DNA of 64,000 nt from an uncultured Christensenella sp. (GTDB lineage Bacteria > Bacillota > Clostridia > Christensenellales > UBA1242). The stretch covers positions 12,710 to 76,709 of the forward strand of contig CAZNJK010000002.1 in the NCBI GenBank assembly GCA_964573405.1. The letters are read 5' to 3'. The position numbers and the translations under genes are program-made. This document shows, one piece after another, positions 16,732-23,497 of the stretch; within the stretch, counting starts at the first letter, position 1; every line of letters begins with the position of its first letter. The notes below the pieces were generated by a model. It was given only the letters and a program-made list of their open reading frames with translations. It did no database searches and was not told the DNA's origin.

Positions 16732-19200
16732 TTATTTTTGCGTAAACTCGAATGTGTATGTTCCGCTCGTCATATCTTTTTCAATCCAATCACCGTTTTC
16801 ATCTTGAGTATTTACTTTTGCGGTAACATCTTCGCTTGTTCTTGTAATTTCGACTTGCACATTGGTGAATTTACTATTGAAAAATTCTTCCAATTTCTCG
16901 ATTTTTTCTTCATCGGACATTTTTTCAACCGCTTCAGTCCCCATTGTACTAATCCATTCGGTGATTTTGTCAGTATCTAGAGTAACTTTGCTTATTTTCT
17001 CTATCTCGCTAGAATTAATCAACTCTATAAAGTCGCTAAGTCTTGCTTCGGTCGATAGCGTAACTGACGGCTTAATAATTAACAAAACCCCTTGTTTCGT
17101 CTCACCGCCAAACTCATAATTAATCGCTCCGTAATACAAATTTATTCCCCAATTATCGGTACCAATATATGGTGCTTGCTCAATTGCTTGAAAACTATAT
17201 CCTTTTGAGTCTTTTATGATTTGTATCAATATATCAGACCAATCATTTGTTTTCAATTTTTCGCCATATTGATTACAAAGCGATTTTGAAATTACCACTT
17301 CAACGCACTTACAATCCGCAATTGTCATTTCTTTTAAAATGTTTTTAAGGTCATCAGCCGAGTTAATCACTCTTGAAAATTCTTTGTCGTTTAATTTTAC
17401 TTTGTCAGCCACATAATAATTATAGGATTTTTCGGCAGTAAGTAGGCTAAATACATATCTATTTTCATAATCCATATGGTTAGAATCATCTGCCACAAGG
17501 AAGTACAAATGTGCCAACTTCTCGTCTAATTTTACATACTTCATATTATATGTTCCGTACGAGCCTATCTCTGTCCAAGTAATGTCGGCCATATACCAGT
17601 TTCCGTCTATTTCGACTTTGTTCCAAGCGTGACCACCGCCACTTGCCAAGCCCATAACCCTTACGCAATTAATTCCTTCCATATTACATAGAAGTGCATA
17701 TGTCTTGCTATATCCGTCACACACGCTTAGTTTTGAACTACTATATAGCACCCCTTCCAAGTAATAGCACATATATTGCATTGGGTTGTCGGTGGTCTTA
17801 TTATTATAAGTATCCATATCATAAACTGTATTTGCCGTGATATAGTCGAATATGCTTAGTGCTTTTTCATAGTCGGTCATATCGTCGGAGATTATATCTC
17901 TCAAAATTTCTTTTGCGTTGTTGTATATTACATATGCCCTACTCGTCGTATCTGAGAAAGTAGGAGTAACATGCGAACTTACCGCCCAAAACAACTTTTC
18001 GCTAGTATCGACTTCGGTGCTCAAAAACCAGTTATCCGACACGAAATCGTCGTAATCATCGGCTCTTTTTGAGTAATTTACTGTTTCGTAATATGGTGTA
18101 TAATCTACATCTTGCGAATATGTAACTCCCCCGATATTGTAAGGCGAGCCTTCTAAAGTAGGCTCAGCATCCACTTCGCTAGTCGATGTATCAAAATCTT
18201 CAAATTCACAAATTAATTTAAATTCTCTTGTCGAAAGTTTAACCATTTCAAGATGCGGAGCATCCTTAAATCCCGCAGTTTCAAAATACGCGGTTTGACC
18301 CGTTGCTCCACATATATAATTATTAGCATCGCCCGTTGTTGTATCTAAGTAAGTATCTTCGCTTGATTGATAAAATTCTTCGCTTGCTCTAAATTTAAGG
18401 TTTTCAATTCTATATATAAAAGCGTAATAGTAAATATTTTGTAGTTCTTGCCAATTTTCTATGTAATAATCATACACTCCGCCATCAAAGATGTATATTG
18501 TGTCGGTATATATTCCGTATTCGTCGCAGTCGGCGGGATTGAAGTAATATAATTGTTTCATTTTGTAGTTAATTCCACCCACCACGCTACTTACATTTAT
18601 TGCTAGCACTTCATTACCCGACATCATTTCGTCGGTTATTTGTAATAAGTTGGTGGTTGTGTTGTAGTGATTAATGCCCAATGAGTTGGTGTATATTGAC
18701 ACCATATATCCCGTAAGGTTTTTCACATTTGTAAGGCCGTTCCATCTCAATTGTCCGTCAGACAATGTTACATTTGTCACATCGTAGCGGTCGTCGAATT
18801 GATAATCGATGTCGGAGATATTTCTATTTAGGTAGTCACTTGCGGTGCCAATCTTTACAACAATTTCGTTGCTAGGGTCACTATCAAGATACTTCCCACC
18901 GCCTATGCTTTTTACTTTAAATCTATATTCGCCATAAGCACCCACATTGTCTTCATAGCAATAGGAGTATTGTGTTTTGTCCCCGTCTTGCTCTATGGTG
19001 CCTATTGATTTCTCGTTCATTAGTATTTCGTATTCGGTTGCGTTGTAGTTGGTGTCCCAATACAATGTCATACTATCTTCGTTGACCGATACTTTCGGTG
19101 CTATTAATTTAGTGCCGAAGAAAAAGTTACAGCCGGTCGTAAAAAACGAGCATACTAAAACAATGATGATTAAATTAATTATATACTTCTTTTTTTTCAT
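16732..19200 (-). CDS. Lipoprotein with Fn3-like N-terminal modules and a transglutaminase-like cysteine protease core
   Basis: Signal peptide with lipobox: MKKKKYIINLIIIVLVCSFFTTG|C. Transglutaminase core Cys...His...Asp: CDGYSKTYALLCNMEGINCVRVMGLASGGGHAWNKVEIDGNWYMADITW. Starts 12 nt after the stop of the upstream gene, so it is co-transcribed. Confidence 0.75.
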   Translation of the reverse strand: MKKKKYIINLIIIVLVCSFFTTGCNFFFGTKLIAPKVSVNEDSMTLYWDTNYNATEYEILMNEKSIGTIEQDGDKTQYSYCYEDNVGAYGEYRFKVKSIGGGKYLDSDPSNEIVVKIGTASDYLNRNISDIDYQFDDRYDVTNVTLSDGQLRWNGLTNVKNLTGYMVSIYTNSLGINHYNTTTNLLQITDEMMSGNEVLAINVSSVVGGINYKMKQLYYFNPADCDEYGIYTDTIYIFDGGVYDYYIENWQELQNIYYYAFIYRIENLKFRASEEFYQSSEDTYLDTTTGDANNYICGATGQTAYFETAGFKDAPHLEMVKLSTREFKLICEFEDFDTSTSEVDAEPTLEGSPYNIGGVTYSQDVDYTPYYETVNYSKRADDYDDFVSDNWFLSTEVDTSEKLFWAVSSHVTPTFSDTTSRAYVIYNNAKEILRDIISDDMTDYEKALSIFDYITANTVYDMDTYNNKTTDNPMQYMCYYLEGVLYSSSKLSVCDGYSKTYALLCNMEGINCVRVMGLASGGGHAWNKVEIDGNWYMADITWTEIGSYGTYNMKYVKLDEKLAHLYFLVADDSNHMDYENRYVFSLLTAEKSYNYYVADKVKLNDKEFSRVINSADDLKNILKEMTIADCKCVEVVISKSLCNQYGEKLKTNDWSDILIQIIKDSKGYSFQAIEQAPYIGTDNWGINLYYGAINYEFGGETKQGVLLIIKPSVTLSTEARLSDFIELINSSEIEKISKVTLDTDKITEWISTMGTEAVEKMSDEEKIEKLEEFFNSKFTNVQVEITRTSEDVTAKVNTQDENGDWIEKDMTSGTYTFEFTQK

Positions 19201-19211
19201 GTTGTGCCTTT

Positions 19212-20006
19212 CTAAACAGTTATACTATTACCCCTATTGTTTACGCCACGTTGCATATTTGTTATCCACTTCCTAGGTGCGGTGTTCCACGCATTGCCAG
19301 ATTCCACGCCAAGGTTATTTACATCTGCATGCACTGCTTCAACATTGATTGTTATTGTTGCGGACTTGCCACCAAAAATATTCAATGTGTTATGAAAATC
19401 AAATTCAATTTCTTCAAATAGGGTCAAACGCTGGTTTTTGGCAAGTGAGCCGTAGTAATAATAGTAGCCGTCCCACTCATATCCATCGATTTCCTCTTCT
19501 GGATTATATATATGCCAAGACTCCTTCGAAAGGTCCGACATAATAGGGATTACCACATTATTATATGACCTACCGTCAACATCTACGGTGATTGTATATC
19601 TTACAAATATATTTGCATATTCGCTAGGGTTGTCGTCCCCTGACGTGCTATCGGAGTTGCTGACTACACATCTGATGTTGTATTTTTCGCCAGGGAATAC
19701 TTCTAGTTCCGATATTGACTGGTCGCCCGATTCGTCCGTCAGGTTCTCGGTAACCAATGTACTTAATTTGATTATTCCGCCTTGCGATATGCTATTTGGG
19801 TTTTTGGTGAAGAAATATACTGCCACCCCGATGCCACCTAGCAAGATAAGGATAAGGATGATAATTATTAGTTTTTTGAAAAAGCCACCGACGGCGCCTT
19901 TACGGTCGTCATCGTCGTCGTTTTTGTTTAACTGCGAGTTTAATTTTCTTAAGTTTTCGTCTTGAGATGATCTATTAAACTGCGAGTTATTATCAAATTC
20001 TGACAT
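19212..20006 (-). CDS. Membrane-anchored secreted protein, TasA/CalY-like (SipW-type signal-anchor motif), with an acidic/polar N-terminal tail
   Basis: Strong SD AAGGAGG. TM segment LIIIILILILLGGIGVAVYFFTKNPNS with an aromatic motif after it. The C-terminal strand ATITINVEAVHADVNN parallels VYAVQYQGG and VVETVQTVG of the neighbouring paralogues. Confidence 0.5.
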   Translation of the reverse strand: MSEFDNNSQFNRSSQDENLRKLNSQLNKNDDDDDRKGAVGGFFKKLIIIILILILLGGIGVAVYFFTKNPNSISQGGIIKLSTLVTENLTDESGDQSISELEVFPGEKYNIRCVVSNSDSTSGDDNPSEYANIFVRYTITVDVDGRSYNNVVIPIMSDLSKESWHIYNPEEEIDGYEWDGYYYYYGSLAKNQRLTLFEEIEFDFHNTLNIFGGKSATITINVEAVHADVNNLGVESGNAWNTAPRKWITNMQRGVNNRGNSITV

Positions 20007-23441: not shown

Positions 23442-23468
23442 ACATTTTACCCATTGTATACTGGTTAT

Positions 23469-23497
23469 ATTTTACTAATTTTGACGAATTTTGTAAA
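23469..23497 (-). promoter_or_regulatory. Sigma-A-type promoter for the TasA-like operon
   Basis: On the minus strand: TTTACA, then 17 nt, then TAAAAT. It lies about 30 nt upstream of the ATG at 23441. Confidence 0.45.

Follow-up and report, generated by a model that had tools for sequence, protein, structure and literature searches.

Do five adjacent genes of an uncultured Christensenella sp. encode a surface fibre that is built from several TasA-like subunits and acted on by an enzyme of the transglutaminase fold? The genes, here called A to E, lie in a 64,000-nucleotide stretch of contig CAZNJK010000002.1 (assembly GCA_964573405.1, positions 12,710 to 76,709), hereafter called the window, which has a G+C content of 36%. 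An earlier note, made from the letters of this stretch alone, had described four TasA/CalY-like proteins followed by a transglutaminase-core lipoprotein, encoded by co-directional genes between one promoter-like site and one terminator. The five open reading frames (ORFs) are present on the minus strand at 16732..23441 as it had claimed, with a promoter-like site on the 5' side and a terminator-like hairpin on the 3' side:

Gene A: 21819..23441, minus strand, 540 aa
Gene B: 21004..21627, minus strand, 207 aa
Gene C: 20125..20790, minus strand, 221 aa, start codon reassigned
Gene D: 19212..20006, minus strand, 264 aa
Gene E: 16732..19200, minus strand, 822 aa, starting 11 nt past D

For gene C, the ORF list offered a TTG at 20862; an ATG with AAAGGAGG before it is found at 20790, and this ATG was taken as the start, giving 221 aa, the same figure as in the earlier note. 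We think it somewhat probable, and it is the reading that we favour, that A to E make up a single operon whose products build a heteromeric surface fibre of the TasA/BsaA class; the fibre would be assembled by donor-strand exchange, and E would act on it.

Profile comparisons indicate that proteins A to D all belong to the TasA/BsaA/camelysin superfamily, with homology that is remote but consistent. The families are small, B having 16 homologues and A 12 among 5.8e9 clusters, and the sole relevant NCBIfam signal among the four proteins was that of TIGR04088 on B (15.2 bits against a cutoff of 19); this model matched 8 of 16 members of the B family, below threshold. When a profile of the B family was compared with 1.84e9 representative proteins, 79 matches were recovered, and the distant ones (n = 68) were matched by TIGR04090, the BsaA family, in 56 cases, by TIGR04088 in 46, by PF12389 in 44, and by the TasA model in 9. 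A BsaA-like hidden Markov model (HMM) made without any sequence from the window matched only four ORFs in the window, namely B (E=8e-34), D (1.2e-19), C (3.9e-14), and A (8.4e-11). The family alignments of A to D were then enriched with homologues from 79 species-level genomes and compared using hhalign: the N-terminal domain of A and proteins B, C, and D each aligned with the BsaA-like profile over 171–183 columns at a probability of 99.2–99.9%, and the four families aligned with one another at 97–99%. The TasA-like identity that had been proposed for all four small proteins is thus borne out by the transitive search, by hhalign, and by the BsaA-like HMM.

A profile combining the distant matches with protein B of the window also reached the solved TasA fibre 8aur_A (E=0.006) as two collinear stretches, one in the N-terminal 'F.D...G.(L/V)D(L/I)...PGD' region and the other in the C-terminal 'N.YQG....(F/A).A.Q' strand. 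Searches of PDB sequences with A and B, both as single sequences and as family profiles, gave nothing usable. In the family consensus (28–51 homologues per family), the motif T-x-[AS]-[WY] after the transmembrane helix is kept in A, B, and C, and the C-terminal strand 'A.A(V/I)Q ... W..AP' is also kept; both are real family features and not chance resemblances. The related C-terminal strand pointed out in the earlier note is therefore upheld, and the N-terminal junction that it had ascribed to all four proteins stands for A, B, and C; no such SipW-type junction is found in D, either in the alignment or in the family consensus.

The subunits differ in their architecture. Protein A consists of a signal or transmembrane helix with a TFA|W junction, a TasA/BsaA-like domain at about residues 36–205 (hhalign of the A family against the BsaA-like profile, probability 99.2, E=1e-19, 177 columns), a middle beta-sandwich at about 207–345, and a C-terminal jelly-roll. 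Its AlphaFold2 (AF2) model (mean predicted local distance difference test score, pLDDT, 77.5) has three beta-rich domains, and Foldseek matched it to carbohydrate-binding modules (CBMs) of the CBM4-2, CBM22, and CBM16 types (2y64, 4xup, 3oea, 2zew; E=6.6e-5 to 1e-3, probability 1.0, TMt 0.53–0.62). The C-terminal domain is presumably the CBM4/22/16-like jelly-roll, which agrees at the level of fold with the CBM-like domain that had been suggested for the 540-aa protein; neither PF02018 nor any other Pfam model matched A. Homologues of A in more distant relatives have only about 240–370 aa, so that the extra domains are a lineage-specific decoration. We propose A as a candidate distal tip adhesin.

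Protein B, which we propose as a candidate shaft subunit, has the clearest SipW-type signal of the set (TLS|YFFDTHSASQVITAGSVSIEV) and gave the highest hhalign probability against the BsaA-like profile (99.9). Its AF2 model (pLDDT 78.8) is a beta-sandwich behind the signal helix, and the positions at about 33–43 of the B family, past the predicted cut site, include several nearly invariant residues. The candidate donor-strand segment is predicted to be disordered in the monomer models of both proteins (residues 30–48 of B and 36–53 of A, pLDDT<50). The best Foldseek match of B was a fibrillar-adhesin CLIPPER domain, followed at ranks 2 and 3 of 350,542 chains by 7ueg_A and 8aur_A (template-modelling (TM) score at most 0.33), with chaperone-usher pilins below the top three. 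The earlier note had named HMM and fold searches as its checks; both were run, and the proteins are TasA-like by profile, with the weaker support coming from the fold search of B. Protein C carries an FTFA|WY junction (hhalign against the BsaA-like profile, probability 99.5, E=1.2e-22) and is proposed as a candidate shaft or adaptor subunit. Protein D has a variable cytoplasmic N-tail (about 45 aa; 45–100 aa in the family) and a single positive-inside transmembrane helix, followed by the TasA/BsaA-like domain (probability 99.5, E=2.8e-22). Because of its cytoplasmic tail and its lack of a SipW-type junction, D is probably an uncleaved, membrane-anchored base, as far as topology can be predicted from the sequence, and not a fourth secreted subunit.

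Protein E has a basic N-terminus, a hydrophobic stretch, and a lipobox with Cys24, which is at least 90% conserved. Residues 432–539 match PF01841 Transglut_core (E=3.6e-10, 40.5 bits against a cutoff of 23); the same model is above threshold in 24 of 24 homologues of E, and Cys494, His524, and Asp539 are invariant in these 24 homologues, down to 30% identity. The motifs of the triad align with the equivalent segments of PDB 9crn_A, which the E-family profile reached at E=1.7e-18. In other words, the description of E as a lipoprotein with an intact Cys-His-Asp core holds, with the triad invariant at the aligned positions. The Fn3-like modules that had also been ascribed to E are a hint only, coming from sub-threshold matches to IL3Ra_N (E=3e-4) and to a PDB Fn3 chain (E=0.11). 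Some homologues of E are much longer, at 1,540–2,050 aa (L018, L019, L032, L036, L046, L049, and L057); the four of these that were scanned (L018, L032, L046, and L057) have two Transglut_core stretches each, which from the sequence looks like tandem duplication or fusion, with no further informative domains.

To follow the cluster across genomes, an E-profile scan was made over one genome per GTDB species, and the family HMMs were mapped onto all ORFs of the recovered loci. This yielded 79 loci, all in metagenome-assembled genomes (MAGs) from human-gut, ruminant, and other samples, nearly all labelled Clostridia, Clostridiales, Eubacteriales, Christensenella, or Christensenellales. Among the 46 loci with a full-length E and at least 3 kb of upstream sequence, a TasA-like gene stands directly upstream of E in 44, three or more TasA-like genes are present in 30, and an archaeal-type signal peptidase is present in 20. 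In control loci matching the transglutaminase core alone, a TasA-like neighbour was found in 3 of 18 and SipW in 0 of 18. In relatives, the whole block MFS-DegV-A-B-C-D-E-(small ORF)-GerA-GerB-GerC-giant protein is syntenic at 45–88% identity, and the same order from the MFS gene to the giant protein is found in MAGs whose E is only 32–37% identical. In other species, the block takes the form sipW-A-B-C-(D-C)-D-E, with ger genes downstream in some species and none in others. Because the block is kept both with and without the ger genes, the linkage of E to the TasA-like genes is not mere frozen synteny, and the genes are co-conserved in relatives even where the flanking genes differ.

This distribution bears on a reading in which A to D are non-polymerising surface or matrix beta-sandwich proteins, such as adhesins or 'camelysin-like' factors, whose gene order is simply inherited synteny. 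The MFS, DegV, ger, and giant Flg_new protein genes are also syntenic in the clade of the window, and BsaB, a paralogue of BsaA, is reported to make only dimers (PMC11580942); both points speak for such proteins. Nevertheless, the A–E block persists with different flanks and with sipW, its intergenic gaps are tight (11–30 nt) in most relatives, and four paralogues with a conserved N-terminal strand motif suit strand exchange better than independent adhesins. We regard the non-polymerising alternative as quite improbable.

Two variations in gene content were also seen. In several species that carry sipW (L026, L028, L034, L041, L045, L047, L058, L061, and L066), the cluster is enlarged to A-B-C-D-C-D-E or A-B-C-B-C-D-E, which suggests duplication of a C-D or B-C gene pair. 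In one lineage, a 132-aa dCMP/cytidine deaminase-like gene lies between D and E (L012 9593-9991; L013 7921-8319).

The sister species also provide the link to SipW. In the 20 loci with an archaeal-type signal peptidase gene, a 188–245-aa ORF with an SGSMEP motif immediately precedes gene A. Three such ORFs were compared with TIGR02228 (cutoff 51.85), the archaeal-type signal peptidase I class that includes SipW; their scores were 56–65 bits, and their next-best match was the Bacillus SipW model. The association with SipW that the earlier note had read from the signal peptides is thus matched by gene order in these species. The clade of the window has lost sipW from this place and has none in cis, and the T-x-[AS]-aromatic junction is still kept in its A, B, and C, from which we infer that a SipW-class enzyme encoded elsewhere in the genome still processes them. 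The idea that E itself substitutes for SipW was rejected, since E co-occurs with SipW in the 20 loci. The TapA model TIGR04087 matched only 3 of 16 members of the B family, at E of 0.11 or worse, in agreement with the statement of the earlier note that no TapA-like gene is present.

In the mechanism that we propose, A, B, and C would be exported with SipW-type signal peptides, with a predicted cut after T-x-A/S (TFA/TLS) and before the aromatic residue. The cut would free an N-terminal strand, which would insert into the beta-sandwich of the neighbouring subunit. Protein D, keeping its transmembrane helix, would be the cell-proximal anchor and would offer the acceptor at the base, and A, with its two extra beta-sandwich domains (one of them CBM-like), would form the distal glycan-binding tip. 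E, a putative lipoprotein at the outer face of the membrane, would act on the fibre, most likely by making covalent links between subunits or to the envelope, a role analogous to that of a pilus sortase. The SipW-class peptidase would be supplied from elsewhere in the genome, while sister lineages keep its gene directly upstream of A. Polymerisation, the order of the subunits, D as the anchor, and the reaction of E are inferred by analogy with the characterised fibres.

Several observations weigh against this reading. No curated Pfam or NCBIfam family model reached its cutoff on A to D in a scan to E<=1, and the fold matches of B are weak (E about 6e-3 to 9e-3, TM score at most 0.34). As the earlier note had stated, sipW was not found in the 64-kb window, where scans for an S26 motif and for a SipW-profile match at E<1 came back empty, so that processing is an assumption. 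In the B family, the position that was matched by eye to the isopeptide Asn of BsaA, using one BsaA-like reference, varies (Q/G/D/K), and no conserved cross-link site (Gln/Lys or Asn-Glu-Lys) was found in that family. Moreover, bacterial Transglut_core domains are at least as often hydrolases (proteases or isopeptidases) as cross-linkers. Because every curated family threshold failed and sipW is not encoded in cis, we do not file these proteins as TasA or BsaA orthologues. The variable Asn-equivalent suggests that an autocatalytic lock is probably absent, which would allow for an enzymatic lock but is no proof of one. A mapping of the full BsaA Asn-Glu-Lys triad was also tried; with no reference BsaA in the set, only one sequence fitted, and that with an offset, and no claim is made from it.

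The same points bear on what E does. The fibre may be as described and E a hydrolase, either a protease or isopeptidase of the papain-like kind, which would mature the subunits or release them, or an enzyme that opens peptidoglycan locally to let large folded subunits such as A through the wall. The Cys-His-Asp core is common to transglutaminases and papain-like hydrolases; by sequence, E resembles generic Transglut_core proteins only and, below threshold, the MAG6410 family (NF045980, 63.8 bits against a cutoff of 450, so that E is not a member); and the missing cross-link site in B points the same way. For the BsaA system, peptidoglycan has been considered as a barrier to folded proteins larger than 25 kDa (PMC11580942), and we count this for hydrolysis as well. 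However, nothing separates a hydrolase from a cross-linker here, and SipW explains signal removal where it is present. On this evidence, a hydrolytic E is unlikely, although it is the strongest of the alternatives. The more specific proposal, that E is a dedicated polymerase or cross-linker that covalently links subunits already held by donor-strand exchange, or attaches them to the D anchor or to the wall, with A at the tip, B and C in the shaft, and D at the base, is a tentative one, to which we give slightly less weight again; if true, E would fill the part played by sortases in Gram-positive pili and by autocatalytic isopeptides in BsaA. Taken broadly, cross-linking or anchoring by E has a slight edge over hydrolysis, since the invariant triad is kept beside structural subunits and signal removal is already explained by SipW.

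When would such a fibre be made? Upstream of gene A, one promoter and its surroundings could be compared among relatives:

Operon promoter TTTACA-17 nt-TAAAAT: 23469..23497, minus strand, from a consensus scan

Upstream of gene A, the sequence GCTTTACAAAA...TAAAAT is conserved in 13 divergent group-1 loci of the clade of the window, and no other block there is; six loci with sipW have an exact 12-mer of this sequence immediately before A, in the interval that separates sipW from A. Judged by its consensus boxes, the operon promoter is of the sigma-A type, and no consistent sigma-E, -F, -G, or -K motif emerged from a pattern scan of the sequences preceding gene A in the 13 loci. The conserved sigma-A-type promoter points to expression in vegetative or biofilm cells more than to a role confined to sporulation, although reasoning from consensus is weak for uncultured Clostridia.

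The earlier note had left open a spore-appendage role because of the nearby ger operon, and on this point the evidence is mixed. According to such a reading, the cluster would make a spore-associated structure, either an appendage or fibres close to the coat or cortex, functionally tied to the gerA-gerB-gerC receptor operon. GerA lies at most 1.5 kb downstream of E in 19 of the 43 loci with enough downstream flank, including loci in which E is distant (the adjacency is also seen at 30–35% identity of E) and loci where no TasA-like gene was detected (L030, L052, L055, L079, and L091). TasA itself was first described as a spore-associated protein, and the Bacillus spore coat uses the transglutaminase Tgl. 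Against this stand the sigma-A-like character of the sole conserved promoter, with no consistent sporulation motifs; the bidirectional terminator and the divergent gene between E and gerA in the window; and the absence of ger genes downstream in many sipW-bearing loci. The recurrent adjacency of E and ger could be coincidental synteny or a spore link, and we judge a spore structure improbable.

The promoter upstream of A is not the only promoter-like element of the cluster. The spacers upstream of B, C, and D hold 1.7–3.3 tandem copies of a 60-nt promoter-like and hairpin module with the consensus TTGACC-N12-TATAAT-AACAAAAAAAA-TAAGACAATAGCC-GTCCGCNAGGAC:

Modules of about 60 nt upstream of B: 21641..21762, minus strand, last hairpin abutting the ribosome-binding site
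Modules of about 60 nt upstream of C: 20803..21003, minus strand, three copies and a degenerate one (Tandem Repeats Finder, period 60, 3.0 copies)
Modules of about 60 nt upstream of D: 20023..20124, minus strand, 1.7 copies
Intergenic modules in a relative: L009, 4373-4555, 5190-5388, and 6066-6168
Intergenic modules in a relative: L017, 7214-7445
Intergenic modules in a relative: L011, 7171-7440, 8031-8310, and 8985-9130

The hairpin motif GTCYGCNARGAC occurs eight times in the window, always in the B, C, and D spacers, against a chance expectation of 0.05, and in every spacer the final hairpin directly adjoins the AAAGGAGG ribosome-binding site. A relative at 83% identity has the same modules in other copy numbers; one stem variant, ATCC...GGAT, looks compensatory in the raw sequence, the last base lying outside the alignment. 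TTGAMC-N12-TATAMT and TAAGACA are kept in the far more distant L017, and the corresponding spacers of L011 hold tandem modules whose sequence is not the same. Pairing in the 4-bp stem reaches 97%, and one of its pairs covaries. The 12-nt spacing of the boxes is unlike that of a sigma-A promoter, no Rfam family matched the modules at E<=1, and no stable larger fold was found (z=-0.67). A search of JGI metagenome contigs with a 19-nt module pattern gave seven matches, all of them chance occurrences in unrelated DNA. The modules may be unusual internal promoters, or sites of mRNA processing or stabilisation that set the stoichiometry of the subunits. The claim of a single promoter is thus incomplete: the conserved site upstream of A stands, and promoter-like modules before B, C, and D have to be added to it.

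The boundaries of the locus are marked by hairpins on both sides. Upstream are genes for an MFS-like transporter and DegV, and the degV gene is closed by a second terminator-like hairpin at 23634..23604. The end of E is marked by the terminator announced in the earlier note:

Intrinsic-terminator-like hairpin, bidirectional, 13-bp stem and T run: 16644..16674, minus strand, common to E and the convergent 181-aa gene

Downstream are the 181-aa ORF on the opposite strand, gerA/gerB/gerC (12159-15875), and a 3,852-aa protein. The 181-aa ORF (16038-16583, plus strand), between E and gerA, has no family match and has the bidirectional terminator in common with E; several relatives (L002, L005, and L011) have a gene of 163–233 aa at the same place, also on the opposite strand. 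The giant ORF (481-12039, minus strand, 3,852 aa) has Flg_new matches, from precomputed Pfam matches, and LRR_5 repeats, and its product is presumably a huge surface protein. In the clade of the window, this ORF always lies 3' of the ger operon (L002, L005, L011-L017, L042, and L043), and as many as 7,816 aa were called for it, in L012.

Among the filaments that serve Gram-positive bacteria and archaea in biofilms and adhesion, fibres of the TasA/BsaA type are a major class. To our knowledge, the fibres of this type that have been characterised are essentially homopolymers, held by strand exchange alone or by autocatalytic isopeptides. The present operon suggests an ordered heteropolymer, with a glycan-binding tip, a built-in membrane anchor, and an obligate partner of the transglutaminase fold. 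Dozens of uncultured species, sampled from the human gut and from ruminants, keep the arrangement. Should E act on the fibre, this would be a third way to stabilise such filaments covalently or to remodel them, and it would offer a handle on the attachment of these abundant, uncultured gut Clostridia to glycans of the diet or the host. Furthermore, the profiles from this analysis recover TasA-like genes that have diverged too far for current Pfam and NCBIfam models to detect.

Donor-strand exchange is the mode of assembly of TasA (PMC9674648), and TapA primes or anchors the TasA fibre by strand complementation (PMC10151520). For BsaA of C. perfringens, PMC11580942 describes donor-strand exchange, an autocatalytic Asn-Lys isopeptide lock, and membrane-anchored oligomers; it also covers operons with several BsaA/TasA paralogues, for which heteropolymers have been proposed. 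Among known systems, the present operon most resembles the sipW-bsaA-bsaB-bsaC operon of Clostridium perfringens (PMC7395162, PMC11580942): both are clostridial operons with several TasA-like paralogues and a tie to a SipW-class peptidase, TIGR04090 is the model matched most by the distant relatives of B, and the membrane-anchored BsaA oligomers fit the role proposed for D. In contrast, the sequence similarity is remote, the curated thresholds are not reached here, and sipW is not in cis in the window. There are four paralogues in our operon, one with its own membrane anchor and one with a CBM-like tip domain; a transglutaminase-core lipoprotein takes the place of the von Willebrand A protein BsaC; and BsaA has an autocatalytic Asn-Lys isopeptide site, whereas the position aligned with it by eye is not conserved here.

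The tapA-sipW-tasA operon of B. subtilis and the sipW-tasA-calY operon of B. cereus (PMC9674648, PMC10151520, PMC4292775) have in common with our operon the fold superfamily, the T-x-A and aromatic junction, and a C-terminal 'F.A.Q'-like strand. They also combine a major subunit with an accessory anchor or nucleator, roles that are proposed here. Unlike them, the present operon has no TapA homologue and has four paralogues instead of one or two, among them a subunit with a CBM-like domain and a TasA-like protein with its own membrane anchor, together with the transglutaminase-fold lipoprotein. The archaeal bundling pili (AbpA of Pyrobaculum; PMC9245690) and other chaperone-free donor-strand filaments are likewise made of TasA-like beta-sandwich subunits that assemble there with no chaperone, and the bundling pilus of Pyrobaculum, 7ueg_A, is the second-best fold match of B, albeit a weak one (E=5.7e-3, TM score 0.26–0.29); unlike the product of our operon, these pili are single-subunit and lack an enzyme partner. 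The sortase-assembled pili of Gram-positive bacteria offer a functional analogy only, in that they have a tip, a shaft, a base, and a membrane-bound cysteine enzyme; their folds and chemistry are unrelated, and the present operon has neither an LPxTG motif nor a sortase. The MAG6410 lipoproteins of mycoplasmas and PDB 9crn have the same Transglut_core as E, and neither has a known link to a TasA-like gene.

Full-text literature searches found no paper that links a TasA/SipW system to a transglutaminase-like partner, consistent with the remark in the earlier note that such a combination was not known to it. A phylogeny paper on BsaA lists LPxTG, fibronectin, SpaA, choice-of-anchor A, signal peptidase, and sortase among the neighbours, and a transglutaminase is not among them. 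Operons with several TasA/BsaA paralogues are already known; what is new here, as far as the literature searched goes, is such an operon with a transglutaminase-fold partner.

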